From Candidatus Latescibacterota bacterium (GTDB lineage Bacteria > Latescibacterota > UBA2968): a DNA stretch of 64,000 nt. A program made the position numbers and the translations under genes. Location of the stretch: NCBI GenBank assembly GCA_022823725.1, contig JAJEHL010000039.1, positions 7,632 through 71,631 of the forward strand. The letters are read 5' to 3'. Below are positions 2,239 to 20,738 of the stretch, one piece after another (the first letter of the stretch is position 1; the number at the start of each line of letters is the position of its first letter). The notes under the pieces were generated by a model. The model did not search any database, was not told where the DNA came from, and saw only the letters and a program-made list of their open reading frames with translations.

Positions 2239-3795
2239 TTAAAAGTCTGCGCCGAAGTTTTGGACAAAGATGAGGAAATCAGAGAAGGTAACGCGCAGGT
2301 CACCGTCGAGGTCAAAGGTGGGGTCAAAGCCAACGTCGCCTGCGGTTTTGCCAAAGCCCGAGACAAAGGCGAGGAAGTCTGAGAAGCCTATTTCACTGTC
2401 GCCATCAAAGTCTGATGTTGCGGGACCAGAAGCGAGTTCAGATACGGAGAGGGTGTAACCGATTGCTGTGCCAGATGTGGAGGTGATGGCGAGGCTTCGG
2501 GCAATATTGCCCGATGTGTGTATGCGTTTTGTCTGTGAGGCTGGGATGGGAATTGGCGCGGCAAAGGGTTGATTCCCTTCGGCAATGAGTGTGACGAGAA
2601 GGTCGTTGTCACCTGTGGATTGAATTGTGAAGGCGAGGTCGGGTGTTTTGCCCAGACCGAGATAGTCTATGCCCCAGCGCGTGGCGCGTCGCGTGAGATT
2701 GTTGGTCGGGACGGTGAGGATTTCGCGCTTTACCGGGGGCAGGTCAATGGCGCGATAGCCGAGGTCTCCCTCACCGTCGAGGTACATGGCTGCGGCCCAT
2801 TGCCCAAAGAGGTGATCAAAGCGTTCGGGCATGTTGAGCGATTGGAGAATATTGTCGATGCTCGCTATGCTGCTGTCTGGATCTGCGACGAGTTTGCGGA
2901 GTGCGCTGTCGCCATAGCGCTGTGCGAAATACGTCATATATAGATATGTCTGGTCAAAATCAAAAAACTGATCTTCCCAATAGGTGAGGTCTGTATTGGC
3001 CGCGAGCGAGAGAAAATTTTCAGTAGCGGCTGCTGTAGTGTCTTTGTATCCACAGGCGAGTTCGGCGTATTCCGAGCACCCTTCGTCGAGCCATTTGGCT
3101 TCGTCGGAATCGGCTTTCCAGTGGATCAGGTGCTGAAATTCGTGGGCGAGTGTGGCGCGTGCGAGGTTGCTGTCAATGTCAAGGGGACGGGCGTCGATAT
3201 AAATGATTTCGCGCGAGACGGGCGGGGCTTCGTTGTCGGTATCGATATAACCGATAAATGTGATGCCCGTGATTGGACTGTCGAGCACGTCGAGTACGAG
3301 GATGAGTATGCGGGGATCGGCATCGACATCTGGGGGATCGCCAAAGAGGTTGGTGACAGTCTCGTAAATGCCGAGGTCGGGATGACGTGCGGTGGATTGA
3401 TCAAACGCGCGTGCCAGGGATTCAATACCCGCTTGTGTTACGCGCGGGGTGTTCCACATGTCATCTTCTACAAAAATATAACAGTGGTCGCCCACATAGC
3501 GACAGGTTGTTGTGGTGTGGTATTTTCCGCCGCCAACGAGTTGGAAACTGTATGCGGGCAGCGTGAGTGTATCGCCAACGCGGAATGGCGTGGAGAAGGG
3601 AATTTTGGTCGCGGGGCGATAGGGTGTGGTTTGGCGTGGAATCAGGTGGGTTCCGCTTTGGGGGATGGGTTGGGCGTGGACGGAAAACCATCCGCAGAGG
3701 AACGCAGATGAGCACAGATAAATGCAAAAAGATCGCAATCCGGCTGTTATATTCGCGAAGAGGAGATCGCATTTGCGAATTGTTGGCGGAGACAT
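2239..3795 (-). CDS. secreted HExxH zinc metallopeptidase with C-terminal dockerin-like (EF-hand) repeat pair
   Basis: There is an N-terminal signal peptide (LRSFCIYLCSSAFLCGWFSVHAQP) and a LAHEFQHLIHW zincin motif. The C-terminus carries two repeats, DFDGDSEIGFSDFLAFVSGFG and DLDGDLRVTFSDFLIFVQNFG, with a DxDGDxxIxFxDF calcium-binding dockerin type-I-like pattern. Confidence 0.6.
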   Translation of the reverse strand: MSPPTIRKCDLLFANITAGLRSFCIYLCSSAFLCGWFSVHAQPIPQSGTHLIPRQTTPYRPATKIPFSTPFRVGDTLTLPAYSFQLVGGGKYHTTTTCRYVGDHCYIFVEDDMWNTPRVTQAGIESLARAFDQSTARHPDLGIYETVTNLFGDPPDVDADPRILILVLDVLDSPITGITFIGYIDTDNEAPPVSREIIYIDARPLDIDSNLARATLAHEFQHLIHWKADSDEAKWLDEGCSEYAELACGYKDTTAAATENFLSLAANTDLTYWEDQFFDFDQTYLYMTYFAQRYGDSALRKLVADPDSSIASIDNILQSLNMPERFDHLFGQWAAAMYLDGEGDLGYRAIDLPPVKREILTVPTNNLTRRATRWGIDYLGLGKTPDLAFTIQSTGDNDLLVTLIAEGNQPFAAPIPIPASQTKRIHTSGNIARSLAITSTSGTAIGYTLSVSELASGPATSDFDGDSEIGFSDFLAFVSGFGKTAGDVGFDPTFDLDGDLRVTFSDFLIFVQNFGADF

Positions 3796-3797
3796 TG

Positions 3798-4421
3798 TTA
3801 AAATCGGACTGAGAGTCGCACCTGTAAGTCCCCAGAGGTATTGGGGGAAACAGTTGCAATGGGACGGGTTTTGGCGGCGATGTTGGCGGCATTTAACGCG
3901 CTGGCAAAGCGATTGAAGATGAGTGCGCCCACAAAGAGAAAGCTGCGTGTGCGTGCCCAGGTGGCTTTGCTTCGCAGTTCTCGGAAGTGTTCACGGGAAG
4001 CCGGTGAGTCCCACTCCCAAAAGTTTTCGGGTGTTTCTGGTAGTGGGTTGCCCGATGAGCCTTCGACATATATCAATCGGGCGTTGTAGTCGTAGATGCT
4101 GTTGTAACTGGATAGGCGGTCGTAATGGGAGTTGGGTTTTTTGACGTTGGTTGCGCCAGCGCGTGCCGCGGCATAAGCGCGGAAGGTATTTTCTCGCGTG
4201 GTGTTGAGTTTTTGAAATGCAAATAATCCCGTCCAGAACATGCCTTCGGTAAATAGGAAAAATTTCGCAGATTTTCGCCCGCCCGCATATCGCTCGCCCA
4301 GGCCGGGTAAGAGGATCGATAAAAAGGCAGCTTTTTTTGGTGATTTCGCTTCTTGTGCAAATGCGGCAGACGGAGCGAGCAAACAGGCACAGACGATCAG
4401 GATTTGGGATGGTGTTTTCAT
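3798..4421 (-). CDS. secreted hypothetical protein (paralog A of tandem pair; conserved LLPGLGE-YAG motif)
   Basis: Signal peptide ILIVCACLLAPSAAFAQ. Shares AAFLSILLPGLGERYAGG / AFFLSLLVPGLGELYAGA, a FRAYA..R.. block and a C-terminal ...R.SV(E)L..RF with the neighbouring gene. Sits in the operon 3 nt from the upstream gene. Confidence 0.5.
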   Translation of the reverse strand: MKTPSQILIVCACLLAPSAAFAQEAKSPKKAAFLSILLPGLGERYAGGRKSAKFFLFTEGMFWTGLFAFQKLNTTRENTFRAYAAARAGATNVKKPNSHYDRLSSYNSIYDYNARLIYVEGSSGNPLPETPENFWEWDSPASREHFRELRSKATWARTRSFLFVGALIFNRFASALNAANIAAKTRPIATVSPNTSGDLQVRLSVRF

Positions 4422-4425
4422 GATG

Positions 4426-5097
4426 CTAAAATCTCGTTTTCAATTCAACCATGGACCGTCCATGACTATCGACAGGCGTGATGTCGATCCACAAGCTCGG
4501 ACCGGTCTTTTTTTGGCGTGTGCGCGTATAGGCCGAGGCGTGTATGGCACTGGCAATGTGGTTGAGTACTGCCAGACCTGTGACAACAGACGCGCGTTTG
4601 AGGTATTTGTTGCTGTCGTTGCGACGGGTTTCATAGTCCAGTCTGCGTGACGATGGCACGTTCTTATTGTCGGTGGAAAAGTCAGCCGTCACATCGTCCC
4701 AGCCATAGACAAATTGATGATATTTGCCAATGAGTTCGTAATACTGTTGCGTGTCGTTGCTTTTGGAAGGCAGGTCGTGGGTTTCGTAATACGGCTCGGG
4801 CTGAGTTTTGTTCCATTCCCGCCAGGCGGTGTACTGTGCTTCCTGCCAATGCCGATCGGCATATGCCCGAAATTCTTCCTTAATGTCATTGCCTTTGCTC
4901 CGCCATGAAACATAAGCGGTCCATGTGAGGGCTTCTGCACCTATAAATCCGACTGCGCGCATTTTGGCTCCGGCATATAATTCACCCAGACCCGGTACAA
5001 GTAGTGAGAGAAAGAAGGCCGTTTTAGGCGATTTTTCCGCAGCGACCTGTCCGCACATGAGCGCGAAAGCAAGCGTGCAGAGTGTGAATGTTCGCAT
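4426..5097 (-). CDS. secreted hypothetical protein (paralog B of tandem pair)
   Basis: Signal peptide TLCTLAFALMCGQVAAE. Same conserved blocks as 3798-4421 and the same C-terminal ...ELKTRF end, giving an aromatic terminus like outer-membrane proteins. Confidence 0.5.
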   Translation of the reverse strand: MRTFTLCTLAFALMCGQVAAEKSPKTAFFLSLLVPGLGELYAGAKMRAVGFIGAEALTWTAYVSWRSKGNDIKEEFRAYADRHWQEAQYTAWREWNKTQPEPYYETHDLPSKSNDTQQYYELIGKYHQFVYGWDDVTADFSTDNKNVPSSRRLDYETRRNDSNKYLKRASVVTGLAVLNHIASAIHASAYTRTRQKKTGPSLWIDITPVDSHGRSMVELKTRF

Positions 5098-5111: not shown

Positions 5112-8100
5112 CTAAAAGTTGACTTTCCCAACATCCGTAACAAATCCAAATAATAATGTAAAATATACTTTAAAACCACTTTGTTCAAGTGGATCGCCAG
5201 CCCGTTGCAAAGGCACATGGTCGAAACCGTAGGCCACGTCGAGGCTGGCACGTGTGGGAAAAAGATAAAACGAGGTGGCGTCGTAGCGCAATTGCGTGCC
5301 CAGTTCGCGTTTCCATCCGCGTTTGAGTATCGCGTCGTCGGGTGTGCCATCCCAGGCGCGGGCGATTCCGGCAAAGAACGCGCCGTAGAGTTGATCGGAG
5401 TAGATTGGGCCTGTTTGTCGATCGATGCGCGACCATAAGGGAAAGCGATAAGCCGACCGCAACATCAGGGCGCGGCGACCTTCCAGGCTATAAAACGTAT
5501 ATCCTTTCATACCGGGCAAGCCCCCGAGAAAGAAGTCAAAGGTGTCGTCAACTTCGCTGTCGATCACGCCGCCAAAAAAGCGGAAACTCAGGGCACTGCG
5601 GCCGGGAGCGACCGGGATAAATTCGTTCCAGTCGAGGGAGAGTTGGTTGTAGAAATAGCGGTCGTAGGTTTCGACGATTAGCGAGGAATTTTCCTCAAAG
5701 CCGCTGATGAACCAGTTGAAATAGCGATCGTATCGCAGCGCGAGATGGCGTCCGGATCGGGGATTGATTTCCGAGTCTCGGGATCGACCTATGGCATTGA
5801 GGCGATAGGTGAGGGCGAGGTCAAATCCGTTGAGGGTGGTGGCGGCCACTATGTCGCGATTGAGGCCGTTGAATCGCGCTTGATCCAGGACTGCACCCGT
5901 GCGATTGTACACGAGGCGCGCGTCGATCGTACCGCCGCGTCTCAGGGTGTATTTGCCGCCTATTTCAATGCCCGTGAGCGCAAAGGTGCGGTTGTAGATG
6001 CGAAAGTCTTCGTCACGGCTGATTACATCTTCTTCAACGTGGCGCGATAGACGATAGGCTTCGAGAAAAAAGGTGGGGCGTTTTTTGCGGTATTCGTAAA
6101 GCGCGTACAGGTCCATATCCAGATCGTGGGCAAGCAGACCACTGATAAAAAAGGTTTGTTTTCGCAAGACGTCGTCGGATCCCGCTATGGCGCCGAGTTT
6201 GATTTTGCCGCTGTCAATTGCCAGACGCGGAAGTATGGTGGTGGATGAAAATTCGTTTTTGTATGGGCGGCTCGATATCGCGGGTTTGGGCGGTGTGGGG
6301 ACGAAGGGTTCGACTCGAAAAATGCTGGTCTCTACGGACTCTTTTAATGGCTGAGAGATAACGCGAATTTCGTAGGCGTTTTTGCCGTAGTGGCTATATG
6401 CGATGCGATGGCCATCTGGATGCACCTGGGGTTGAAATGCGCCGCCGTACACGCGGGTGAGGCGGTCTATTGCGCCGTTGGATAGATTGGCGCGATAGAG
6501 GTTGAAGATGCCGTCGTGGTCAGAGGCAAATACGAGGGATGAGCCATCGGGTGTCCAGCACGGATCGCGGTCGGTTTCGCGGGAGGCGATGCGCACTGTG
6601 TAGTCACCGCCTGTTGCGGGAATGGTGGCGATGTCCCGCGAGGTGCCGCTTTGGTAGAGCGAGAATGCGATTTGCGATCCATCGGGAGACCAACGCGGAG
6701 TGGCGACCTGTGAGCCATCGTCGAAAGATGTGAGATATCGAATAGTGTCTGCCGCGATGTCGAGGATACAAAGATTGGTGCTGCCCCCGCCGTTTTTGAT
6801 AAACGCTATTTGCGCTCCGTCTGGCGAATAGGCCGGGTGGATGCCGCGCAAGCCAGTGCTGAGGCGCGTTTCGCCCGGGAAAGTGGCTTGTGCGAGACCA
6901 ATTTTAGTTTTGACATTTTGAAATAGGCTCGATTTGACGGCTTTGGTTTCCATGGCGTAGAGGTCCCATTGCCGCGCACCGTATTTATTGGGCTGGCTGT
7001 GGCGCGCGTAGAGGAGTTGCTCGCCATCAGTTGACCAGTCAAAGGCCGTGACCGCGCTGGGAGCGGCGATTTCTACGCTGCTGTCGGCGAGGGTATAGAC
7101 CATCAAACTCGTGCGCCCATAATCGCTACCTTTATTGGAGAGGTAGGCGAGTTTTGTTCCATCGGGAGACCAGCGAGGGTGTAGATTGAGGTAGCCGTCT
7201 TCGCGGATGAGGTCGCCCTGTGCGGGACTGATTTCGATCTGTGCGATTTGATCCGCATAGCGTTTTTTGAGCGATGCGACCCAGCGCTCGTGCAATTCGC
7301 TTGCAGAGATGCCCAGGGTGGCGCGGATTGCGCCGCCAAAATCCGTGCGCCACCAGACTTTCATTTGCCGATACAATTCGGGGAGTTTGTCGCGCCCAAA
7401 AGTATCGACAATAAAGAGGGAGAGCGAGTAGCCGTGGTCGTACACTTTTTCAAATCCGAGACCTGTTTTGGCGCCAAAGACGGACATTTCGTCGCGGGTG
7501 AGTAAGCTTCCATTGCGCGTGGCCTGGCGCAAAACCATATCGCGGTGTGAGTCCCAGCGGTCGTGTTGTGCGCCCGGTGCCATGTATTGCGCCGTGCCTT
7601 CGGCAAACCAGGGCGGGATGATGGTGGCGGGAATGGCATAAGCGGCAAGGACATTGGGATAGCCAGCGAGGATGTCGTCGCGTTTGCCTTCGCCCTGATA
7701 TTGCAGGTAGTTGAGGAAGATGGCGGGGATGCGCCGCGAGGATTTTCGAGCGATTTGGAGCGAGATGATGTGCGTCAATTCGTGCGTTATCACGTTTGGA
7801 AGCCAATCTGTACTGCCGCGCAGTGCAAAGTCGAGGTTGGAGACCCAGATTTCGATGGTGTTGTGGTAATAATACGCTGCGCCATTGGCATAGTCTTCGG
7901 TGTCTTTGAGAATGATGCGGACTTTGCTATCGGGTTCAAAATTGTAAAAGGACGCGATCGGGCTGTACGCGTCTTCGGCGATTTGGGCAGCACGCGGAGC
8001 CAGCTTTTCCAGTCCCTGATGGTAATAGACTTTGAAGTGCTCGGTTTCAATGACGCGCCAGTTCAGTTCGGGGTGATTGGCGTCAAATTGCGCGAGGGCC

Positions 8101-8153
8101 TGTGTACTCAGGGTCAGGAGGATGAGGATCGTTTGTGTGAATTTGTAAGACAT
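5112..8153 (-). CDS. outer-membrane Omp85/BamA-type beta-barrel protein with N-terminal HExxH peptidase-like domain and TolB-like PD40 beta-propeller (no recognisable POTRA)
   Basis: Signal peptide (ILILLTLSTQALAQ), followed by the motif VITHELTHIIS. At least five PD40-type repeats are present (PRWSPDGTKLAYLS, PAYSPDGAQIAFIK, PRWSPDGSQIAFSL, PCWTPDGSSLVFAS, PQVHPDGHRIAYSH). The C-terminal roughly 350 aa carry Omp85 motifs (FLGGLPGMKGYTFYSLEGRRALMLRSAYRFPL) and the protein ends ...GKVNF with a terminal Phe. Confidence 0.65.
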   Translation of the reverse strand: MSYKFTQTILILLTLSTQALAQFDANHPELNWRVIETEHFKVYYHQGLEKLAPRAAQIAEDAYSPIASFYNFEPDSKVRIILKDTEDYANGAAYYYHNTIEIWVSNLDFALRGSTDWLPNVITHELTHIISLQIARKSSRRIPAIFLNYLQYQGEGKRDDILAGYPNVLAAYAIPATIIPPWFAEGTAQYMAPGAQHDRWDSHRDMVLRQATRNGSLLTRDEMSVFGAKTGLGFEKVYDHGYSLSLFIVDTFGRDKLPELYRQMKVWWRTDFGGAIRATLGISASELHERWVASLKKRYADQIAQIEISPAQGDLIREDGYLNLHPRWSPDGTKLAYLSNKGSDYGRTSLMVYTLADSSVEIAAPSAVTAFDWSTDGEQLLYARHSQPNKYGARQWDLYAMETKAVKSSLFQNVKTKIGLAQATFPGETRLSTGLRGIHPAYSPDGAQIAFIKNGGGSTNLCILDIAADTIRYLTSFDDGSQVATPRWSPDGSQIAFSLYQSGTSRDIATIPATGGDYTVRIASRETDRDPCWTPDGSSLVFASDHDGIFNLYRANLSNGAIDRLTRVYGGAFQPQVHPDGHRIAYSHYGKNAYEIRVISQPLKESVETSIFRVEPFVPTPPKPAISSRPYKNEFSSTTILPRLAIDSGKIKLGAIAGSDDVLRKQTFFISGLLAHDLDMDLYALYEYRKKRPTFFLEAYRLSRHVEEDVISRDEDFRIYNRTFALTGIEIGGKYTLRRGGTIDARLVYNRTGAVLDQARFNGLNRDIVAATTLNGFDLALTYRLNAIGRSRDSEINPRSGRHLALRYDRYFNWFISGFEENSSLIVETYDRYFYNQLSLDWNEFIPVAPGRSALSFRFFGGVIDSEVDDTFDFFLGGLPGMKGYTFYSLEGRRALMLRSAYRFPLWSRIDRQTGPIYSDQLYGAFFAGIARAWDGTPDDAILKRGWKRELGTQLRYDATSFYLFPTRASLDVAYGFDHVPLQRAGDPLEQSGFKVYFTLLFGFVTDVGKVNF

Positions 8154-8165
8154 AGTGTTAATGGT

Positions 8166-11156
8166 TTACTTAATTACTGCGGCTTTGATAAATCGCACCT
8201 CTGTGCGCGTGCTATTGCTGGCTTGCAGGCGACAGATATAGAGGCCGCTGGCATAATCGGATATATCCCAGGCGATTTCGTTGTCAGTATTGGGCATGGG
8301 ATTGTTGTGAGTGAGGTCGGCGACTCTTTCACCGAGGGGATTGTAAATGGTCATAGTGATTTCGGCGGGTTCTAACAAAAAAAAGCGAATGCGCGCCCTG
8401 TCGCCATTGCGGATCGGGTTGGGGTAGAGATATGCTCGTGCCGCAGGTAAAAGCGAGGTTTCTGTTGGGGTTGCGATTTCGCCCGGCTGTTGGAGCAATT
8501 TGCCCGTGTTGCCCGGTCCGCCGCCGAGTTGTCCCCAGATAATTTTGTTACCGGTATAAGATGGGTCAATTGTTTCCAGGTGGAAGAGTTGCGCGCTGCC
8601 GTCGGCGGTATAGATAATGAGTTCCAGGGTGCCGTCGTTGTCAAGGTCGTCGATAAGTGGTGATGAGAGAATGGGGCCGGGTACTAACAGAGGGAAGCCC
8701 GGTAGGGAATGTCCTTCGGCGGTCAGACCGTAGAGGAAGCCACCGCGTGTACCCGCGAAAATATCGGGGGTTGTGTCGTTATTGATGTCGGCGAGAATAG
8801 GCGGTGCTTCAATGGGGCCGGCGTCGTCTTTTATCGGGAGGGCGAGTGCGCCTTCGGTTTGCAAGATGGCGTTGAAGCGATAAAGCCAGAGTTTGCCGTT
8901 GCCGCCAAAGAGGACTTCGACAAATCCGTCGCGATCGACGTCGGCTACAACAGGGGGTGAATGCGCGCCGCCGGGTACGGGATCGCTTGTGAAGGCGAGG
9001 CCGTTGGCGTCGAGGATGGAGAGGATACCGTCTGTTGAGATGACTGCAATGTCGTCATTGCCATCGCGGTCGAGGTCGCCTATTGCCGGGCCGCCGATGA
9101 TGGGAGACGCGAATGTGGCGAGTGGATTGGATTGGTTGGTTCTGTGAATGAGGTGGAGCTGAGCACTGCTGGTAATGGCGATGAGTTCATTGTCCGAGTC
9201 GCCGTCGATATTTCCCACGGCGAGCGATTGGATGGCATCGCTCAGGGCGATGCTGCCCGTGGTTTCAGATAGAAGATTACCCCATTCGATTTTTCCATCG
9301 CTCCTTCCCCAGATATCGACATATGTTGTGGGGAATTTTGCAATGACGGGTGTTGAAGAGAAAAATGGATTGATATCGATGGTTTCGTGGACTGTACCAC
9401 TGGGACGCCAGTGCGTTCGGGTTGTTTCTCCGCGATGATAGATGAATCCGGCTATTTCCGGGTCGCCAATTGCAGGGGTTGTCGCAAATGACTCGTCCAG
9501 GCTGTGCTGTGTGCCCGCGATTTTCCACGCGCCAGCACTGTGAAGGATTTCTTTGCTTCCATCTCCGTCGAGGTCGATGACGCGGGGCGACTCCCGTGTG
9601 GGATTCAAGTTTGTAATCGGCCAGTTATCTATCCGATTGGCAAAACGGATAGCAACTGACATTACTTCGCCGTGTGGGCTGAGTACTTCGATAGTTATGC
9701 CGCTTTCATAGCCTGAGTTGCTGCGGGTGTTCGGCGAGGTGTTGGGATCAAATACGGCGTTGTTGCCCACGTAAAAGGCGTCTTCTGGCGCGCCTTCGAT
9801 ACTGCTTAATGAGATGATACCAGCTTGAATGATGCGGCTGGCCGATACATTGCCGATGTCTTGAAGGCCATCGGCTTCCTCGAGGGCAATGCCGCGGCGA
9901 TATTGGGCGGGTGCAATTTTGTAATCGGGATGGCTATTGATGTGTTTTTCTGCATTGCTGGCCCGAATAATCGCATCGTCAATGTGGTAGATGAGAATGC
10001 CCGAGCCGGGTATGAATGCGTCGTAGTCATCTGTGGAAAGCCAGACATTATGAGGGGTAGAAAATTCGATTTGCGGGATGCGATTTTCAATATTGAGGCG
10101 CGAGTAGCGATTTTCAATTAAAAAATATTCTGTGGCGCTGATAGGTACGCGAATAGCCTGCGGAAGATCGGACGCGCTACCGGATGCAGCGATTTCTACG
10201 GTGTCGTTGTGGGTGATCACGAGTGGTTCGAGCCAGCCGAGTTGCATGCGGCACCAGGCGATCATGCGACTGGGCAAGAATCCAATCAAATTTGTGCTGG
10301 CGGGGTCGTTTCTGAGGGGTTGGAGTCCCAGGCGCGCGGCGTCAATTTGATTGTTGGCACCCGTGTCCATCAAACTCCAGTCGCCAATTGCAGGCAGATC
10401 GTTTTCAAAGTCCGAAAGACCGGGCAAGCCGAGTTGCGAGGCAAAAAATCGAGCGATCGTACCGTTGAGACCACCCTGACCATTTGTGCTGATGGCTTCG
10501 GGCAATAGCATGCCCGATGTGACCTGAAAAGCACCGTTGTTGACGGAAATCGCGCCGTCGGCGAGTTCGATGAGGTCGCGTTCAAAAATAAAGGCCGAGG
10601 GTATATCATTGAGTTTTTGACCTGCTTCTCCGCCGAGTCCCGCATGAAATACTGCAAAGGCGCGGTATTTTGAGAAATCTATATTTGCGCCATCTGTGTT
10701 ATCCGCAGCGCGAATACCATCCCGAAAAAGCCGCGTGACGCGCTCATTTATTTCGCGCCTTGTGCGCCCATTGCCGTATTCGATCAAGGGGGTGTCGAGG
10801 ACGTAACTCGCGGTGGAGTCTTGTGGATAGACATCGTATTCGATGGTTAGTTGACCTCGGGATATGTCGCGGTAATAATTGGACAGTGCCTGCAGGTGGG
10901 CTTCAAAATAGGCGCGGTCATGGGGGGGGGCATCAAAGGGGTAGATGCGATCGGGACTTTCGACTGTACTGAGATTGAACGTGCCGTTTCCACTGGTGGT
11001 TTCGTTGTCGGGATCTTCGGGGGGAAAAGAGACGCGCACGGCTAAGACGCGATAGGTTGGGTCAGCTATAATAGGCTGTACAAAAAGGGCTATAAGACAC
11101 AGGAGGATTCCGCATCTGGACAGAAGGGTCATAGTTAAGCGTGTATTCGGTTTCAT
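8166..11156 (-). CDS. large secreted M6 (immune-inhibitor-A)-like domain protein with FG-GAP repeats and T9SS C-terminal sorting domain
   Basis: Signal peptide is present. The segment ...TIARFFASQLGLPGLSDFENDLPAIGDWSLMDTG resembles the M6 HEYGHNLGLPDEY...WSLM region, but with the His/Glu positions substituted. There are at least six FG-GAP-like Ca-binding repeats (IDLDGDGSKEIL, GNIDGDSDNELIAI, GDLDRDGNDDIAVI, ADVDRDGFVEVLF, ADINNDTTPDIFAG, DDLDNDGTLELIIY). The C-terminus LYPNPIRNGDRARIRFFL...TMTIYNPLGERVADL...GLYICRLQA...VRFIKAAVIK fits the T9SS CTD (Por secretion tail). Confidence 0.7.
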   Translation of the reverse strand: MKPNTRLTMTLLSRCGILLCLIALFVQPIIADPTYRVLAVRVSFPPEDPDNETTSGNGTFNLSTVESPDRIYPFDAPPHDRAYFEAHLQALSNYYRDISRGQLTIEYDVYPQDSTASYVLDTPLIEYGNGRTRREINERVTRLFRDGIRAADNTDGANIDFSKYRAFAVFHAGLGGEAGQKLNDIPSAFIFERDLIELADGAISVNNGAFQVTSGMLLPEAISTNGQGGLNGTIARFFASQLGLPGLSDFENDLPAIGDWSLMDTGANNQIDAARLGLQPLRNDPASTNLIGFLPSRMIAWCRMQLGWLEPLVITHNDTVEIAASGSASDLPQAIRVPISATEYFLIENRYSRLNIENRIPQIEFSTPHNVWLSTDDYDAFIPGSGILIYHIDDAIIRASNAEKHINSHPDYKIAPAQYRRGIALEEADGLQDIGNVSASRIIQAGIISLSSIEGAPEDAFYVGNNAVFDPNTSPNTRSNSGYESGITIEVLSPHGEVMSVAIRFANRIDNWPITNLNPTRESPRVIDLDGDGSKEILHSAGAWKIAGTQHSLDESFATTPAIGDPEIAGFIYHRGETTRTHWRPSGTVHETIDINPFFSSTPVIAKFPTTYVDIWGRSDGKIEWGNLLSETTGSIALSDAIQSLAVGNIDGDSDNELIAITSSAQLHLIHRTNQSNPLATFASPIIGGPAIGDLDRDGNDDIAVISTDGILSILDANGLAFTSDPVPGGAHSPPVVADVDRDGFVEVLFGGNGKLWLYRFNAILQTEGALALPIKDDAGPIEAPPILADINNDTTPDIFAGTRGGFLYGLTAEGHSLPGFPLLVPGPILSSPLIDDLDNDGTLELIIYTADGSAQLFHLETIDPSYTGNKIIWGQLGGGPGNTGKLLQQPGEIATPTETSLLPAARAYLYPNPIRNGDRARIRFFLLEPAEITMTIYNPLGERVADLTHNNPMPNTDNEIAWDISDYASGLYICRLQASNSTRTEVRFIKAAVIK

Positions 11157-11165
11157 AATGCGAGA

Positions 11166-12512
11166 TCAGTGAGAATAGCTGATGCGATAGATCAGGCCGG
11201 CCTGGTCGTCCGATACGAGCAGGGAACCGTCGGGCATGACGAGTACATCGACTGGCCTGCCCCAGTTCGATTCGCCCTGCAGCCAGCCTTTTGCGAATGG
11301 CTCATAGCTGACTGCCTCGTTGCCATTCAGGCGCACCAGGGTGACGCGGTAGCCGATCTTGCTGCTGCGATTCCAGGATCCGTGTTCGGCGATAAAGATC
11401 TGATTGCGGTACTCCTCTGGAAACATGTCGCCAGTGTAGAAGCGCATTCCCAGAGCCGCTACGTGTGGGCCGAGTTCCTGGACCGGCGCGACGAACTCGC
11501 CGCAGCTACGCTGATCGCCGAATACAGGATCGGCGATGTTGGTGCCGTGGCAGTAGGGATAGCCGAAGTGCTGTCCATTGACGGTTATTCTGTTCAGTTC
11601 GTCCGGTGGCACATCGTCGCCCATTCTGTCTCTTCCGTTGTCCGTGAACCACAGTTCGCCCGTTTCCGGATGCCAATCGAAACCGACGGTGTTGCGAATG
11701 CCTCGCGCTATGATGCCGAAGTTGCCATTGGTGTCCAATCTTCCGATTGAGGCGTACGGATCGCCGCGATTGCAGATGTTGCACGGCGCGCCGACGGGTA
11801 CGTACAGCAAACCGTCGGGGCCAAAGCGGATGAACTTCCAGCCGTGCGATCGATTCGTGGGAAAAGTGTCGTTGACGATTTCCGGCTGTGGCGGGTTGTC
11901 GAGTTGTGCTTCGATGTTGCGATAGCGCAGGATGCGGTTGATTTCGGCTACGTACAGGTCGCCGTTCTTGAAGGCGACGCCGTTGGGGTTGTTCATGCCG
12001 CGGGCGAGGATGATGACTCGTTCTGCTTTGTGGTCGCCATCTTCGTCGCGTAGTGCGTACACGCGGCCACTGGGGCGAGTGCCGACAAAGAGGGTGCCGT
12101 GTGGACTGAGGCTCATTGAGCGAGCACCCGTTATCCCTTCGGCGTATATGTGAATGTGGAATCCTTCAGGTAGTTCAATTCGCGTCAGGCGTGGATCGCT
12201 GGGTGGTTGTGGTGCCGTTGATGATGCCGCAAAGCTATTGACAAATAGCAGAAAATCGTCAAATGCAATCTCGCCATTCCCATCCAGGTCGTATTTCGCA
12301 TCGTACCGCTCTTGGCCGGCTTGAGATCCGAATGCGGTGACAAATAGCAAAAAGTCGGGAAAATCGACAACACCATTGCCATTAAAGTCCGAAGAAGGGG
12401 GACTGCTATTTTGAGAAAAAAGAGGCGAAAGCAAGAGTGTGAAGTTCAGCAAACTGGCGGTGCCGAGCGCGAGAAGGCGAGGTCTGGCATTGTATCTCAA
12501 GAGATTTAGCAT
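11166..12512 (-). CDS. PQQ-dependent soluble aldose/sorbosone dehydrogenase (GSDH family) with N-terminal dockerin-like repeat pair
   Basis: A signal peptide is followed by DFNGNGVVDFPDFLLFVTAFG and DLDGNGEIAFDDFLLFVNSFAA (dockerin/EF-hand pattern). The body matches GSDH/YliI-type beta-propeller dehydrogenases (...RNTVGFDWHPETGELWFTDNGRDRMGDDVPPDELNRITVNGQHFGYPYCHG...). Confidence 0.7.
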   Translation of the reverse strand: MLNLLRYNARPRLLALGTASLLNFTLLLSPLFSQNSSPPSSDFNGNGVVDFPDFLLFVTAFGSQAGQERYDAKYDLDGNGEIAFDDFLLFVNSFAASSTAPQPPSDPRLTRIELPEGFHIHIYAEGITGARSMSLSPHGTLFVGTRPSGRVYALRDEDGDHKAERVIILARGMNNPNGVAFKNGDLYVAEINRILRYRNIEAQLDNPPQPEIVNDTFPTNRSHGWKFIRFGPDGLLYVPVGAPCNICNRGDPYASIGRLDTNGNFGIIARGIRNTVGFDWHPETGELWFTDNGRDRMGDDVPPDELNRITVNGQHFGYPYCHGTNIADPVFGDQRSCGEFVAPVQELGPHVAALGMRFYTGDMFPEEYRNQIFIAEHGSWNRSSKIGYRVTLVRLNGNEAVSYEPFAKGWLQGESNWGRPVDVLVMPDGSLLVSDDQAGLIYRISYSH

Positions 12513-12569: not shown

Positions 12570-13634
12570 TTAAAATATAAATCCACCCGTAAAGCGGAAT
12601 GTATTGCTGGCAGGCGTATCTTCCGTCGGCACAAAATACGAGATATCGAAATTTGCCCAGTTGTATTTTAAACCCAGCCCAAAGGTGGGAAAGTTGCGTT
12701 TGCCATCCTTGTCGTAGGAATAGCCACTGCGCAGGGCAAAAGACGAATCTTCAGATAGCTGGTACATCCATTCGGCACCTACGCGGTAATCTATATCGTC
12801 AAATTCCGTAAAACCGTTTCCGCCCGGATTGGGCTTCCAGCCAAAGGTGTCGTCGTGCCAGCCAGAAATAAAGGAAAAGAAATTATCAGAGGCGAGAGGT
12901 TTGTAAATATCTGTGGTGAGCATCAGGGAAGACGAGTTGTTTTTCATCACTTTGTATGCGATGCCAAAAACGAAATTTTGCGGCAGCGGATCTGCCTGGT
13001 CGGCATCGATAAAGGTCATGTTTGGGCCAACATTGCGCAATACGCTACCGAAGCTAAGCCGATCTGTGGCGGCCCACATGAGACCTATGTCTCCGGCAAA
13101 AGAAGTCGCAGTGCCTTTGCCTTGCTCAATGCCCGCACCTGCGTCGGAGAGGTTTTCATGGATAAACTTAACCGTGATGCCCAGTGCCAGATTTTTGAAG
13201 AGATGCGTGCCATAAGATACACCCAGGGCCATGCCGTAGCTTTTAAATGTACCTAAAAGATTTCCCTCTTCATCGGTGCGTTGTTGTTCGCCCAAAGAAC
13301 TATAAATGAGGCTATATCCCAAATTGCCAATGCCACTAAAGGGATGTGTATAAGCACCGAATGACGAAAAGATGTCGCCGGCCAGTCGGGGAACAGGTTT
13401 GTACAGAGTGGTGCTGAGACTGTGAATTTGTAATGAAGCCAGTGCGGCGGGGTTGTAGTACGTGGCATTTGCGTCATTGGCAATAGCGACATAAGCATTG
13501 CCCATGCCCGCTGCACGGGCCGATGGCGCGAACAACAGAAAATTGGCTGCGGCATGGCTTTCGGGCGTTGCATAAACTGGCGTGCTGAGCAGGCCAATGC
13601 CAAGCGCAAATAGGGTGAGAAGACGGTATTTCAT
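12570..13634 (-). CDS. FadL-like outer-membrane beta-barrel, PorV/PorQ-family candidate (T9SS-associated)
   Basis: Signal peptide LFALGIGLLSTPVYA. The N-terminal hatch motif SARAAGMGNAYVAIANDANATYYNPAALA is typical of PorV/PorQ/FadL-like proteins. It is beta-strand-rich throughout, ends ...FTGGFIF with a terminal Phe, and is the first gene of the operon containing a T9SS cargo. Confidence 0.5.
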   Translation of the reverse strand: MKYRLLTLFALGIGLLSTPVYATPESHAAANFLLFAPSARAAGMGNAYVAIANDANATYYNPAALASLQIHSLSTTLYKPVPRLAGDIFSSFGAYTHPFSGIGNLGYSLIYSSLGEQQRTDEEGNLLGTFKSYGMALGVSYGTHLFKNLALGITVKFIHENLSDAGAGIEQGKGTATSFAGDIGLMWAATDRLSFGSVLRNVGPNMTFIDADQADPLPQNFVFGIAYKVMKNNSSSLMLTTDIYKPLASDNFFSFISGWHDDTFGWKPNPGGNGFTEFDDIDYRVGAEWMYQLSEDSSFALRSGYSYDKDGKRNFPTFGLGLKYNWANFDISYFVPTEDTPASNTFRFTGGFIF

Positions 13635-14346: not shown

Positions 14347-15807
14347 ATGCGGCAAAATATCTGGATCGCGTTCGTGTTTGGGGTTTTGGCCTGTGGTGGA
14401 GGAGATGAGGCGACAAAATTAGATGTAACGGCGTTGGATGGCGGAAGAATAAGCTGGCGGACATGGAGCCAAAGGGATTCCGCCCGAATCCTCGGGCGCC
14501 CCATCTTGTTGTTTTTGTACACGCAGCGGTCGGTTTGGTGCCGAGATCTCGTAGTGCGGTGTTTTGAAGATCCAGAAATTGCGCGAGCGATTACCCGTTA
14601 CACTTTGCCGATATGGATTGATGCCGATCAACGGCCCGATTTGTTTGAGCGTTTTGGTCTGGGCGGGGTCCCATCGCTCGCTTTTTTGACACCTGATGGA
14701 CAGTGGATTACAGGCAGCACCTATCTCGACCCCGGGGATATGACGGATCTGTTGCGGTGGGTGCAAATTTTGTACGACAATCCCGATAGACTCGTCAGGC
14801 TCGAGGTGCAGCGGGCAGAATTGATGCGGCGAGCAGAACGCGATAAAAAGAAAAATCCGCGCCCTCGTATCAATCCCAGTGCAGCGCTTTTGCACCGGGT
14901 GCGCGATAGTTTGAAATCGGTGGTAAAAAGCGGTTTTGATCCAGGTCCCGAAGGTCTTCTCGCGCTTGCAGAAGCGGGTATTGACTCGCCTTTGATCAAT
15001 TTTGTACACAGCGCAGGGCGCGATACAGATGGCGTTTATGTGTTGGGGGTATTAACACATCGCGGGCCTGTGATTGATGCAGAAAAACACATGGCGGTCA
15101 ATGCTCAATTATTGCGGGCATTTGCACAGGTAAATTTGTCCCGCGATCTGGCCGATGCAATGCTCGAACAATTTGCCGTATCTGGCGATGGTTTGTTGTG
15201 TGCCGGGCTGACGGGTTTTCGAGATCAGGCGGGAAATATATTGCGGGATGCAGAGGTTTATTCGGGCTGGAATGCACTGGCAGTTTCGGGTTTATGCGCG
15301 GCGTTTCTCGAAACTCGAGAGGCGCGTTTTTTAGATGCTGGGCGGCAAATTTTTGAAGCGATTAAGACGCATTTTGTGCAGGAAGATAGCCTGTTTGCCC
15401 ACGCGCGATCTCTGAGTACACCCCATTTTTTGATAGATCAGGTTTTAATCATTCGCGCTGCTCTCGATTTGTTTGAGGTGCAAGAACTCGAGGCCGATTT
15501 GTTATTTGCGCGAGCGCATGCAGATCGGGTTATGACAGCTTTTGCCGATTCTTCGGGCGCTTTGAGAGACCGAACGCCGGAGGCAGAGGTCTCGAACTCA
15601 TCCGCTATTGATCGGTGGTTGCCTTCGGGAAATGGTGTGGCGGCGCAGGTTTTAATACGGCTTTTTGCGCATACGAAAATGCCGCGCTATCGAGATCGCG
15701 CAGAGATAATTTTGACAGTTCTGGTTGGACCCAATATAGATCGTATCGGATATGCTGGCGCGCTGAATCGCGCATTGGCATTATTTGTTCGAGAAAGCGA
15801 AAACTAA
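14347..15807 (+). CDS. thioredoxin-domain lipoprotein, DUF255/YyaL-like (thioredoxin fold + six-hairpin glycosidase-like domain)
   Basis: Lipobox VFGVLACGG. The N-terminal thioredoxin-like region (...LLFLYTQRSVWCRDL...IWIDADQRPDLFERFGLGGVPSLAFLTPDG...) is followed by an alpha-helical domain typical of DUF255 proteins. Confidence 0.5.
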   Translation: MRQNIWIAFVFGVLACGGGDEATKLDVTALDGGRISWRTWSQRDSARILGRPILLFLYTQRSVWCRDLVVRCFEDPEIARAITRYTLPIWIDADQRPDLFERFGLGGVPSLAFLTPDGQWITGSTYLDPGDMTDLLRWVQILYDNPDRLVRLEVQRAELMRRAERDKKKNPRPRINPSAALLHRVRDSLKSVVKSGFDPGPEGLLALAEAGIDSPLINFVHSAGRDTDGVYVLGVLTHRGPVIDAEKHMAVNAQLLRAFAQVNLSRDLADAMLEQFAVSGDGLLCAGLTGFRDQAGNILRDAEVYSGWNALAVSGLCAAFLETREARFLDAGRQIFEAIKTHFVQEDSLFAHARSLSTPHFLIDQVLIIRAALDLFEVQELEADLLFARAHADRVMTAFADSSGALRDRTPEAEVSNSSAIDRWLPSGNGVAAQVLIRLFAHTKMPRYRDRAEIILTVLVGPNIDRIGYAGALNRALALFVRESEN

Positions 15808-17500: not shown

Positions 17501-18172
17501 ATGGCAGAGCAGCACGAACTCAACACCCAGATATCTCTTCCGCTTTCCAAAGCAGTTGAGATCAGCTTTAATAGCGTTAAGATCCGATTTGGTCGGTCTT
17601 TGATTACGGTGAGTGGCATTGTGCTTGCCATCGCTTTTTTAATGTCGATTTGGGCAGGCAATGCCATTATTGACGGTTTGATGGCTGCCAGCGATCCTAA
17701 AATTAACCTGATCTTGCAGCAAAAGGGCGTTGAAATTGATCCCGATAGTGCCGCAGCGATCCAGCAACGGTCAAAAGATGCCTGGCTGGTGGTGTTGTCG
17801 CTGCTCGTGTGTTTGGTGGGTATTGCCAATGCCATGCTTATGTCTGTTACCGAGCGGTTCCGCGAGATTGGTACCATGAAGTGTATGGGCGCATTGGACG
17901 GATTTATTATTAAGCTATTTATTCTCGAATCGACGTTTATGGGTGCAGCGGGCACGGTTATTGGCGTGGTCGTTGGGTTTTTGTTGACAGCATTGCTCAA
18001 TATGTCGAGTTTTGGCACGGTGATTTTCGATCATCTTCCCATGGTTCAAATCCTTCAAGATGGTGTTAAAGCTATTGTCATTGGTTCTTTTTTGTCGCTG
18101 ATTGGTGGCATTTTGCCGGCCTATCGCGCTGCCAAGATGGAGCCGGTTGATGCGATGTCTTTGGAAGTGTAA
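17501..18172 (+). CDS. ABC transporter permease, short FtsX-like (4 TM, no large periplasmic domain)
   Basis: There is an N-terminal TM helix, and the C-terminal ...MSVTERFREIGTMKCMGALDGFIIKLFILES...ILPAYRAAKMEPVDAM is the FtsX/MacB/LolCE signature region. Confidence 0.8.
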   Translation: MAEQHELNTQISLPLSKAVEISFNSVKIRFGRSLITVSGIVLAIAFLMSIWAGNAIIDGLMAASDPKINLILQQKGVEIDPDSAAAIQQRSKDAWLVVLSLLVCLVGIANAMLMSVTERFREIGTMKCMGALDGFIIKLFILESTFMGAAGTVIGVVVGFLLTALLNMSSFGTVIFDHLPMVQILQDGVKAIVIGSFLSLIGGILPAYRAAKMEPVDAMSLEV

Positions 18173-18198
18173 ATGACAAACCGATTGTGAGGTGTTTT

Positions 18199-18969
18199 AT
18201 GGCTGCCGAAGAAAAAACAGAAACAAATGCAGAGGCCGAAGAAGCGACAGTTGTACGCACACAAGATGTGAAAAAGGTGTACATAATGGGCGAGGAGCAG
18301 ATTCACGCACTCAAAGGTGTGGATCTGGAAGTGACGCAGGGCGAATACCTGTCCATCATGGGACCTTCTGGTTCGGGAAAGAGTACTTTGTTTAATATGG
18401 TGGGGGGATTGGATAAGCCGACAGAGGGCAAGGTTTATATCGATGACGTAGATGTCGCCCAACTCGACGCTTATGAACTCGCGTGGTTGCGCTGCCGAAA
18501 GATCGGTTATATTTTTCAATCTTATAATTTGATTCCGGTGATGACAGCGCTTGAGAATGTGACCTTGCCGATGGTGTTTGCCGGGCTGACGAGCGACGAG
18601 GCGCGCGACAAGGGTGTAGACTTGTTGACGCAGGTCGGTCTGGGCGAGCGCGTGATGCACAAGCCTTTTGAGCTTTCGGGCGGTCAGCAGCAGCGCGTGG
18701 CTGTTGCGCGGGCTTTTGCCAACGATCCGGCGATCATTTTGGCTGACGAGCCGACTGGGAATCTCGATTTGAATACGGGGCGGGAGATTATTGAGTTGTT
18801 GCGCCAGATGAACGAAGAGTCGGGTGTGACTGTGATTTCAGCGACGCACGATCACAAGATGCTGTCGGTGTCCGACCGCGTGGTGTGGGTGCGCGATGGT
18901 CGCGTAGATCGCATTATTGATCGCGACGAGTTGAAGATTGAGGTGGGCACGATTGACGGCCATGAATAA
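18199..18969 (+). CDS. ABC transporter ATP-binding protein (MacB/LolD-type)
   Basis: Walker A GPSGSGKST, Q-loop, ABC signature LSGGQQQRVAVARA and Walker B IILADEPTGNLD are all present. Confidence 0.9.
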   Translation: MAAEEKTETNAEAEEATVVRTQDVKKVYIMGEEQIHALKGVDLEVTQGEYLSIMGPSGSGKSTLFNMVGGLDKPTEGKVYIDDVDVAQLDAYELAWLRCRKIGYIFQSYNLIPVMTALENVTLPMVFAGLTSDEARDKGVDLLTQVGLGERVMHKPFELSGGQQQRVAVARAFANDPAIILADEPTGNLDLNTGREIIELLRQMNEESGVTVISATHDHKMLSVSDRVVWVRDGRVDRIIDRDELKIEVGTIDGHE

Positions 18970-18995
18970 CTTCCTTCTTGACACTGTTTTAGAAT

Positions 18996-19025
18996 TTGTT
19001 ATCTTTGGCGCGTCTGATATATAAC
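18996..19025 (+). promoter_or_regulatory. candidate sigma70-type promoter for trp leader/operon (-35 TTGTTA, -10 TATAAC, 18-nt spacer)
   Basis: Hexamers read from the sequence about 8-25 nt upstream of the leader RBS AAGGAA (19034-19039). The match is weak and has not been checked against any model. Confidence 0.25.
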
Positions 19026-19048
19026 TCTCGTTTAAGGAATTTGGTGTG

Positions 19049-19153
19049 ATGAACGCTTTTGCAACCTACTTCTGGTATTTTTGGCGTCGATTTGACGGCC
19101 GATATTATTATTATCGCCGCCTGTCCAAGAGTGTGGTTTGTCCTGCGTTTTAA
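19049..19153 (+). CDS. candidate trp-operon leader peptide, 34 aa, aromatic-rich (MNAFATYFWYFWRRFDGRYYYYRRLSKSVVCPAF)
   Basis: An ATG with RBS AAGGAA 9 nt upstream opens a 34-codon ORF containing 2 Trp, 4 consecutive Tyr (TAT x4) and 4 Phe codons. It lies about 25 nt upstream of a terminator hairpin and about 110 nt upstream of trpE. Confidence 0.5.
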   Translation: MNAFATYFWYFWRRFDGRYYYYRRLSKSVVCPAF

Positions 19154-19178
19154 GTGTGATGTAAGTGAATGAAAGTAC

Positions 19179-19215
19179 GAGGTCGTGGGCAAACTGCTCA
19201 CGACCTTTTTTTTTC
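19179..19215 (+). terminator. intrinsic terminator / attenuator hairpin (GAGGTCGTG-loop-CACGACCT followed by T9)
   Basis: The inverted repeat aggtcgtg...cacgacct with an 11-nt loop is followed by ttttttttt. It lies between the leader peptide stop and the trpE RBS. Confidence 0.6.
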
Positions 19216-19262
19216 TGCCTTTCATCTGCGTCCATCTGCGGATTTGACTTAAGGATTTTTTA

Positions 19263-20738
19263 GTGATTCAACCCGATCTCAAAACTGTCGAGAAGCTGAG
19301 CGAAGGCTGTGGTCTCGTTCCCATCTCAAGAGAACTGCTCGCGGATACAGAGACGCCCGTTTCGGCTTATTTGAAAATTCGCGCAAAGTCGTCTCATGCG
19401 TTTTTATTTGAAAGCGTGGTGGGCGGCGAGCAGATTGGGCGGTATTCGTTTTTGGGCGTGGATCCGTTTTTGGTTTTTCGTTCGCGCGGAACAAAAATTT
19501 CGATTGAACAGGCGACAACGGGTGAGTTGAGAATATTTGATGGGGAGCCTGTTGAGGTATTGCGAGGGTTGTTAAAAAAATACCACTCGCAACACATGGA
19601 AGGGTTTCCTCGATTTACGGGCGGTGCTGTGGGCTACGTGAGTTATGATGCCGTGCGTTTGATTGAGCGCATCCCCGAGACGGTTGAAGACGATCTCGAT
19701 ATAGACGATATATTTTTCTCATTTTACGATTCGGTGCTGGCATTTGACAATGTGACGCACAAAGTGCATGTGATGGCCAATGTGCATACAGAGGGCGATT
19801 TGAAGGCGAATTACGCAGATGCAGTCAAACGAATTGATGGACTGATTGAGCTACTGGCGCAACCTGCGGATACATCCTTAAAGCCAGGGACGAGTTCGTG
19901 CGCGGTGACCTCAAATACGAGCAAAGAAGCGTATATGGATGTGGTGGCGCGTTGCAGGGAGTACATCGTGGCGGGTGATATTTTTCAGGTGGTACCTTCG
20001 CAGCGTTTTGCAATGGATGTGACGGTTGATGCGCTGGATATTTATCGGGCGTTGCGGACGGTGAATCCGTCGCCTTATATGTTTCACGTCGATTTGATAG
20101 ACCATCAACTCGTGGGCGCGTCGCCCGAGTTGCTCGTCCGGGTAGAAGATGGGGTGGTGCAGGTGCGCCCCATTGCGGGAACGCGGTGGCGGGGTAAAAC
20201 AGAGGCAGAGGATCAGGTGCTGGCACAGGAGTTGTTGGCAGATGAAAAAGAATGTGCCGAGCATATTATGCTGGTGGATTTGGGACGCAATGATGTGGGG
20301 CGCGTCTCAAGGTTTGATACGGTGCGCGTGACCGAGCAGATGACGATTGAACGCTATTCGCATGTGATGCATATCGTTTCGAATGTGCGCGGTGAATTGC
20401 ACGAGGATGTCGATGCGCTGGACGCGCTTTTTGCCTGTTATCCGGCTGGTACGGTGTCGGGCGCGCCAAAAATTCGGGCAATGGAGATTATCGACGAGAT
20501 GGAGCCAACGCGTCGCGGGCCTTATGCCGGTGCGGTGGGTTATATCGATTTTGCGGGCAATATGGATACGTGTATTGCCATTCGCACGATGGTGATTAAG
20601 GAAGGCAAAGCGTATGTGCAGGCAGGGGGGGGCGTGGTGTTTGATTCAGAGCCGGGATACGAATATCAGGAGACCGTGAACAAAGCACGGGCACTGTTTC
20701 GGGCGGTAGAAATGGCTGAAGGAGGAGAGTTGTTGTGA
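19263..20738 (+). CDS. trpE: anthranilate synthase component I
   Basis: 491 aa with a chorismate-binding enzyme fold and conserved TrpE blocks (...[16 protein letters not shown]..., ...[12 protein letters not shown]..., ...[20 protein letters not shown]...). GTG start with AAGGA RBS. Confidence 0.9.

Follow-up and report, generated by a model that had tools for sequence, protein, structure and literature searches.

A predicted zinc peptidase–propeller–Omp85 protein encoded beside type IX secretion genes in a Latescibacterota genome

Outer-membrane biogenesis depends at its core on Omp85 proteins, among which the subfamilies without POTRA domains are functionally blank. A survey of the Omp85/TpsB superfamily has distinguished ten subfamilies, one of which is the 'WD40-like Omp85' (Heinz and Lithgow, 2014; Front Microbiol 5:370, PMC4104836). 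The present work concerns a gene of this kind, at positions 5112-8153 of a 64,000-nucleotide stretch of DNA from Candidatus Latescibacterota bacterium (contig JAJEHL010000039.1), which as a whole is called the window. The protein, termed the target below, is a member of the WD40-like Omp85 subfamily by its architecture, which joins a propeller, a clan MA peptidase domain and a barrel. A sequence-only reading of the window had put this tripartite design forward as a novelty, which it is not, having been catalogued in 2014; the catalytic site, the age of the fusion and the gene neighbourhood are the subjects on which something can be added.

The accessible passages of the survey hold several details of the subfamily. 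Its Table S2 records architectures that combine PF07676 (PD40) with PF01103, and in Table S3 the barrel of most members matched best to BamA or TamA and the WD40 part to TolB (2W8B/2IVZ). A 'best aminopeptidase hit' (1Z5H, 4KXD, 3QNF, 4AR1), mostly of the M1 family, is given there with a confidence of 98.7-99.4%, and the main text treats the WD40 part alone, as a 'BamA-BamB fusion' (PMC4104836). The WD40-like subfamily was still called uncharacterised in a 2024 paper on PlpD (PMC11116518).

Domain architecture of the target

The gene is an open reading frame of 3042 nt in the list of frames and their translations, and its reading on the plus strand was ruled out, as that frame is riddled with stop codons. 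It is not a chance reading frame, because at least 119 full-length homologues (38-93% identity) exist and relatives are encoded in more than 573 species-level genomes; the window is 97% identical at the protein level to the chromosome of a Latescibacterota metagenome-assembled genome (MAG). The motifs quoted by the sequence-only reading, namely VITHELTHIIS (121-131), GGLPGMKGYTFYSLEGRRALMLRSAYRFPL (877-906) and the terminal VNF, were all found in the translation. An alignment of the 119 full-length homologues (A1) served for the invariance counts and for AlphaFold2, whose full-length model reached a predicted local distance difference test score of 86.4 and a predicted template-modelling score of 0.84. 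The resulting architecture, a signal peptide followed by a gluzincin domain, a six-bladed PD40 propeller, a linker without POTRA and an Omp85 barrel, is nearly certain (Table 1). The same design was looked for in public genomes, where the full-length homologues share it; among eight remote representatives of clusters at 50% identity, all eight carry Peptidase_MA_2, seven have a PD40 score and two an Omp85 score. As remote representatives keep both the peptidase and the propeller, the fusion is old and stable. In the model, the region of the signal peptide forms a helix (2-14) followed by a low-confidence stretch (14-24). Scans for promoters and terminators gave none above the shuffled expectation.

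The N-terminal domain matches Pfam Peptidase_MA_2 with 43 bits in the full protein and 47.8 bits in isolation, against a cutoff of 32.4, and its model has an alpha/beta fold, which bears out the HExxH peptidase-like head described from the letters alone. The HExxH motif lies on a helix spanning 117-134. The glutamate expected downstream of it is seen as E185, on a helix at 181-190, within the motif W-F-A-E-G-x-A-Q-Y, in which W182, G186 and Q189 are likewise invariant in the 119 homologues. Many of the residues neighbouring HExxH and E185 are invariant as well. By the gluzincin pattern, which is HExxH plus a Glu on the following helix, E185 would be the third zinc ligand. Since the catalytic site is invariant, proteolysis is probably the selected activity.

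Membership in the M1 aminopeptidases was considered and rejected: the GxMEN exopeptidase motif is present in 0/119 homologues and Pfam gave no Peptidase_M1 match. Hence the domain is placed in clan MA and not in M1 proper. In the target, HExxH and the Glu are 56 residues apart, against 18 in the M1 family. One of the structures named in Table S3 of the survey, 4AR1, is a collagenase. A hidden Markov model (HMM) profile of the peptidase domain (A3) found no match among the PDB sequences at E<=10.

The PD40 propeller is resolved in the model as 24 strands, which make six four-stranded blades between residues 314 and 599. A motif scan placed the repeats (x[WV]xxDGxx[IL][AVL][FY]) near residues 326, 371, 440, 486, 531 and 575; the propeller of the sequence-only reading thus stands, and its 'at least five' repeats become six. 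With the full-length model, the best PDB matches in Foldseek were TolB structures (E ~3e-12), and S9 peptidases were also matched. A true TolB was rejected, as the NCBIfam model TolB (TIGR02800) scored 135 bits against a cutoff of 343 and covered profile positions 194-353 only. Between the propeller and strand 1 of the barrel, no POTRA was found, either as a Pfam match or as a beta-alpha-alpha-beta-beta unit in the model. The proposal that other domains stand in the place of POTRA is supported, the N-terminal region being a Peptidase_MA_2 zincin and not a diverged POTRA array.

The C-terminal region is built of 16 long strands across residues 639-1002 in the model. As the full-length Foldseek search was dominated by propeller matches, the barrel was modelled alone; its structural comparison scored 21.0 with Deinococcus radiodurans BamA, 19.7 with CdiB, 19.3 with Sam50, 18.8 with TamA, 17.8 with FhaC and 17.4 with Toc75, and 15.4 with the best unrelated barrel. 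The Omp85 barrel claimed for this region is thereby upheld, with BamA as its closest structural match. Strands 11 and 12 are joined by a 29-residue loop (865-893) in the model, which carries M-K-G-Y (882-885) and corresponds to loop L6 of Omp85 proteins. Invariant residues in it are G877, G878, G884, Y885 and G892, and all 119 homologues have K or R at position 883. A Gly near the end of strand 16 is conserved. The strand-13 motif of Omp85 proteins, (F/Y)xDxG, which pairs with L6, is kept only in part by the family, as Y-x-[D/G]-x-G (D in 63 homologues, G in 50), with G931 in 117/119. The terminal Phe taken earlier as a hallmark did not hold up, because only 3/119 homologues end in F; the conserved C-terminal motif of the family is KxYFT[LV]LFG[YF]L.

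Profile searches with the homologues extend this comparison. Pfam PF01103 matched seven of 24 C-termini of the family, the best at 1.8e-13. Five of six homologues checked passed the Omp85 gathering score (24), those at 42-48% identity scoring 25.5-48 bits, and a remote member reached 63.9 bits against the full Omp85 profile. A barrel-only profile searched against 1.84 billion cluster representatives returned 1084 clusters at E<=0.001, of which 122 reach E<=1e-30. Among the 150 matches listed, about half are proteins of about 1000 aa with a C-terminal barrel, and the rest are shorter, many of them fragmentary in appearance. A word-index protein search with the barrel alignment gave six fragments only.

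Gene order in the window and in related loci

In the window, the target lies in an array of genes on the same strand, separated by gaps of 2-57 nt (Table 1). The array includes a PorV/PorQ-family protein of the T9SS (type IX secretion system), an inactivated M6-like metalloprotease (M6i) and two DUF5683-like proteins. The M6i protein passes the cutoff for the T9SS sorting domain Por_Secre_tail, and its orthologue in locus L057 scores 839 bits on NF052323 against a cutoff of 600. The neighbours of the window were searched by tblastn in 80 related loci. M6i lies directly upstream of the target in 70 of them, a first DUF5683 protein directly downstream in 69 and a second in 50, and PorV is found upstream in 63, on the strand of the target except in L042. 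Many of the partners missed are accounted for by truncated contigs. The order of the partners is constant in all these loci, even at 25-35% protein identity, and the median intergenic gaps are 42-97 nt. The MAG labels of the loci include Latescibacterota, Gemmatimonadota, Handelsmanbacteria, KSB1, Calditrichota, Ignavibacteria, Chlorobi-like, Bacteroidota, LCP-89 and others. These overlap with the lineages from which the Table S3 accessions presumably come, namely Caldithrix, Rhodothermus, Salinibacter, Chloroherpeton and Cytophagia.

When the reading frames of the loci were clustered without supervision, one more family emerged, of about 1340 aa and encoded directly upstream of PorV in 29 loci; this is PorU, the T9SS sortase. 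For example, PorU of L057 scores 927 bits on NF033707 (cutoff 420), and the PorV of that locus reaches 245 bits with the PorV equivalog, whose cutoff is 250, and 285 bits with the PorV/PorQ family model. Likewise, independent gene calls with Pfam labels in the remote locus L084 gave the series Peptidase_C25, PorV, Por_Secre_tail protein, target and DUF5683, and L083 holds a partial version of it, DUF5683 included. The HExxH motif is kept by the target in 79/79 loci and by M6i in 0/70 orthologues, so that M6i is a conserved pseudo-protease paired with an intact-motif zincin and might have a PorZ-like role. The last residue is aromatic in 75/90 DUF5683 proteins, following an alternating beta-signal of the outer-membrane protein (OMP) type, and in 50/66 PorV proteins. 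The (porU)-porV-M6i-target-DUF5683 operon context appears to be new, as no paper describing it was found; the literature searches returned nothing relevant on the combination of T9SS, Omp85 and PD40, nor on DUF5683.

Table 1. Features of the target gene and its neighbours in the window
Feature	Position	Strand	Details
Whole gene, peptidase-propeller-Omp85 protein	5112..8153, including stop codon	minus	1013 aa, ATG start
Sec signal peptide, residues 1-22	8088..8153	minus	MSYKFTQTILILLTLSTQALA, then Q; from sequence, putative cleavage site
Gluzincin (clan MA) metallopeptidase domain, residues 23-310	7224..8087	minus	Pfam Peptidase_MA_2; AlphaFold2 alpha/beta fold
HELTH zinc-binding/catalytic motif, H124 E125 H128	7770..7784	minus	translation; invariant in 119/119 homologues
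E185 in WFAEGTAQY (M1-like 'NEGFA'-type motif), presumed third zinc ligand	7599..7601	minus	invariant in 119/119
Six-bladed PD40 (TolB-type) beta-propeller, residues 311-607	6333..7223	minus	Pfam PD40 E 7e-25; AlphaFold2
Pro-rich linker, 31 residues (608-638)	6240..6332	minus	ETSIFRVEPFVPTPPKPAISSRPYKNEFSST; from sequence; without POTRA
16-stranded Omp85-type barrel, residues 639-1013	5115..6239	minus	AlphaFold2 and fold comparison
L6-like loop motif, equivalent of Omp85 (V/I)RG(Y/F)	5475..5525	minus	GGLPGMKGYTFYSLEGR; between strands 11 and 12
PorV/PorQ-family outer-membrane protein	12570..13634	minus	NCBIfam PorV_fam 231.6 bits, cutoff 90
GSDH/DUF7133-type propeller protein, clade-specific	11166-12512	minus	between porV and M6i
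M6-like (InhA-like) inactivated metalloprotease (M6i), FG-GAP repeats, T9SS type A C-terminal sorting domain	8166..11156	minus	NF052323 363 bits
DUF5683-like protein a	4426..5097	minus	223 aa; weak Pfam DUF5683 match
DUF5683-like protein b	3798..4421	minus	207 aa; weak Pfam DUF5683 match
518-aa HExxH (HEFQH...WLDEG) protein, C-terminal dockerin-like repeats	2239..3795	minus	weak Peptidase_MA_2 and MXAN_6640 matches

Other genes of the array are of narrower distribution. The GSDH-like gene is an insertion found only in the closest relatives of the window (7/80 loci), and the 518-aa HExxH protein occurs in 39/80 loci, nearly all labelled Latescibacterota, Gemmatimonadota or Handelsmanbacteria. 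The latter was examined as a close paralogue of the target's N-terminal domain and rejected, with an hhalign probability of 10%; the two share the same clan only. Paired dockerin/EF-hand-like repeats (D.DG(D/N)..(I/V).F.DFL.FV..FG) are seen at the N-terminus of the GSDH-like protein and the C-terminus of the 518-aa protein, and these may be a lineage anchoring or sorting tag. Both DUF5683-like proteins of the window have a signal peptide, PGxG[EQ]xY, a central QYYELIGKY..GW.D, only weakly hydrophobic segments and an OMP-style beta-signal ending in Phe; they may be either small proteins of the outer membrane or helical membrane proteins.

In several loci of Ignavibacteria/Bacteroidota type (L049, L051, L052, L057, L059, L062, L064, L069 and L074), an extra protein of about 218 aa is encoded between M6i and the target, mostly at about 9.3-10.0 kb. 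It has a lipobox-like signal (LFSC) in L057 and no NCBIfam match, and L046 has a different protein of 215 aa at the same site. In L053 the target family is represented twice, the second paralogue (972 aa, 17706-20624 on the plus strand) lying about 4.6 kb downstream of the first. The gene of the remote member P0253 (L082, 8001-10859) is the last one after genes for MMPL, a methyltransferase, an acyltransferase, a ketoreductase, an acyl carrier protein, an ApeP/FabA-like dehydratase and two ketosynthases, which suggests that the partner system of that branch is a different one. In the window, a thioredoxin-like DUF255 protein whose N-terminus is lipoprotein-like (14347-15807, plus strand) is divergent from the porV end of the operon; this gene and the next, epimerase/reductase-like one are kept in 20-26 of the 80 loci (Latescibacterota and some Gemmatimonadota), in the place that porU has in other loci. 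Elsewhere in the window, a 513-aa reading frame on the minus strand (53556-55097), with no Pfam match at E<=1e-5, adjoins the gene of a 513-aa sodium:solute symporter (55107-56648).

Proposed role and competing explanations

The best explanation overall, to which about even chances can be given, is that the target is a periplasm-facing zinc peptidase which is anchored in the outer membrane, gated by its propeller and accessory to the T9SS sorting module. In Omp85 barrels, the N-terminus of strand 1 is periplasmic, and the L6 loop joining strands 11 and 12 is outside the cell. The peptidase and the propeller, which precede strand 1, should therefore be periplasmic, tethered under the outer membrane. 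The barrel would then be mainly an anchor and a docking platform, with the peptidase and the propeller hanging from the inner face of the membrane. Pairs of a propeller and a peptidase typically admit only peptides or unfolded chains, and by analogy with S9 and tricorn the propeller of the target would probably impose the same limit. Beside PorV and PorU, at the periplasmic face, the zincin may process or remove T9SS-related polypeptides, much as BepA acts at the β-barrel assembly machinery (BAM); candidate substrates would be stalled or mis-sorted cargo with a C-terminal sorting domain, or fragments of sorting domains. More speculatively, the OMP-type terminal strand of the DUF5683 partner may dock on the seam of the barrel, in the way that TamB docks on TamA. 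For this branch, a functional tie to T9SS is about as likely as not, and a specific role in quality control or disposal is proposed tentatively, being rather unlikely. It is possible, if doubtful, that the target is an unrecognised outer-membrane subunit of the T9SS sorting and attachment machinery in many lineages of the Fibrobacteres-Chlorobi-Bacteroidetes (FCB) group, forming a trans-outer-membrane complex with DUF5683, M6i, PorV and PorU in which the periplasmic zincin processes or disposes of sorting-domain cargo or of cleaved sorting domains. Were this so, it would be the first Omp85 family member to act in proteolysis, and also the first tied to T9SS.

Several points weigh against the role of a T9SS accessory peptidase. 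Synteny denotes association and not mechanism, and the periplasmic topology is carried over from that of Omp85 proteins. The porU gene is not adjacent in the clade of the window itself, and three loci with full flanks have no partner at all. Two of the four remote family members sampled lie in non-T9SS contexts, one with AddAB genes and one at the end of a lipid/aryl-polyene-like cluster; the T9SS linkage is hence a trait of a large branch and not of the whole family. The 2014 survey includes members from Proteobacteria and Myxobacteria, and the literature searches gave no later functional work on the WD40-like subfamily and no member with a demonstrated function. The barrel has its own difficulties: Pfam gave no match on the C-terminal 360-410 aa of the window protein even at E<=10, an HMM profile of the barrel (A2) matched none of the PDB sequences at E<=10, and the strand-13 motif is degenerate in the window protein (FAGIA, for (F/Y)xDxG). 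The link to Omp85 is drawn only from fold comparison and transitive Pfam matches.

The sequence-only reading had offered a surface-exposed protease as one option, in which the barrel would export its own peptidase and propeller, in the type V-like manner first proposed for PlpD, and act beside a surface M6i. The T9SS sorting domain of M6i leads one to expect this partner on the surface, and the pairing of an active with an inactive protease is conserved. However, the Omp85 topology, which turns the N-terminus of the barrel to the periplasm, disfavours this option; a 16-strand barrel is unlikely to carry a folded peptidase and propeller of 600 residues as its passenger, and neither POTRA nor a secretion domain of the two-partner type is present, so that export of this kind is improbable. 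In another proposal, the barrel itself would be the active part, as a specialised insertase of BamA/TamA type which folds PorV and the DUF5683 proteins, with the peptidase as built-in, BepA-like quality control and the propeller as a BamB-like scaffold. The BamA proteins as best structural matches, the retained [KR]GY of L6 and the Gly near the end of strand 16, and the OMP beta-signals of the partners (aromatic ends as counted above) would all fit, as would the idea of a BamA-BamB fusion in the survey (PMC4104836). An insertase is nevertheless unlikely, for there is no POTRA to receive substrates and no sign of an open lateral gate, a normal BamA would be expected besides in the carrier genomes, and the core activity, given the invariant catalytic site, would seem to be proteolysis.

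The target could also be a housekeeping envelope peptidase with no specific T9SS tie, its barrel only an anchor and the synteny in the FCB group an inherited order. Remote members beside AddAB or lipid-biosynthesis genes and the three loci without partners agree with this, and so do the proteobacterial and myxobacterial members of the survey, whose lineages are not known to have T9SS; with members in such lineages, the ancestral function would not be T9SS-specific. On the other hand, an order kept at such low identity in MAGs labelled as more than eight phyla or candidate divisions, on one strand but for one locus and with median gaps under 100 nt, would hardly persist unless co-expression were selected for, and the partners are T9SS-specific families, which makes a purely housekeeping role distinctly unlikely. 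A last proposal is an envelope tether, in which the TolB-like propeller binds a peptidoglycan-associated protein of the Pal or OmpA_C type, perhaps a PorE-like T9SS component, and so joins the sorting complex of the outer membrane to the cell wall, the peptidase being secondary. TolB structures are the best propeller matches and the NCBIfam TolB model matches in part; yet the N-terminal domain of TolB is absent, the score is far below the cutoff, PD40 propellers are generic, and the strict conservation of the catalytic site would be left unexplained. Such a tether is very improbable.

What is added to earlier knowledge is an invariant catalytic site, an ancient and stable fusion, and one large branch whose members are locked in an operon together with porU/porV and the gene of a dead protease that T9SS carries. 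The operon context gives a testable hypothesis for an orphan Omp85 subfamily, and possibly a missing T9SS component outside the model Bacteroidia.

Comparison with known systems

The tripartite design is the same as in the WD40-like Omp85 proteins, and the invariant catalytic site and the T9SS gene context are not noted in the main text of the survey that described them (PMC4104836). In comparison with BamA and TamA, the target lacks POTRA, its extracellular loops are short except for L6, and the sequence similarity is undetectable by Pfam. PlpD and the patatin-like Omp85 proteins likewise join a barrel to an N-terminal enzyme domain (PMC11116518). PlpD keeps one POTRA and has a lipase, whereas the window protein has no POTRA, and a zincin and a propeller instead. 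The PlpD study of 2024 is reported to have placed the enzyme domain of that protein in the periplasm, overturning the earlier secretion paradigm; this would be a precedent for a periplasmic peptidase in the target and speaks against its export to the surface.

The six-bladed PD40 propeller resembles those of TolB, the S9 family and tricorn, but the N-terminal domain of TolB is lacking in the target, and the catalytic domain of the S9/tricorn type is a serine hydrolase where that of the target is a zincin. A functional analogy can be drawn with BepA at BAM, a periplasmic zinc metallopeptidase in quality control at an Omp85 machine (PMC8423444, PMC13478230). BepA, which belongs to M48 and also has a TPR domain, is a protein of its own, soluble or docking; the clan MA domain of the target is covalently fused to the barrel. 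In the T9SS complexes of Porphyromonas gingivalis and Flavobacterium johnsoniae no Omp85 or zincin component is known, and the porU/porV loci of these model species are not known to contain the target gene, which appears to be missing from both. The closest parallel there is the attachment complex PorU-PorV-PorZ-PorQ, for the target is co-encoded with porU, porV and a sorting-domain propeller protein, M6i, which recalls PorZ.

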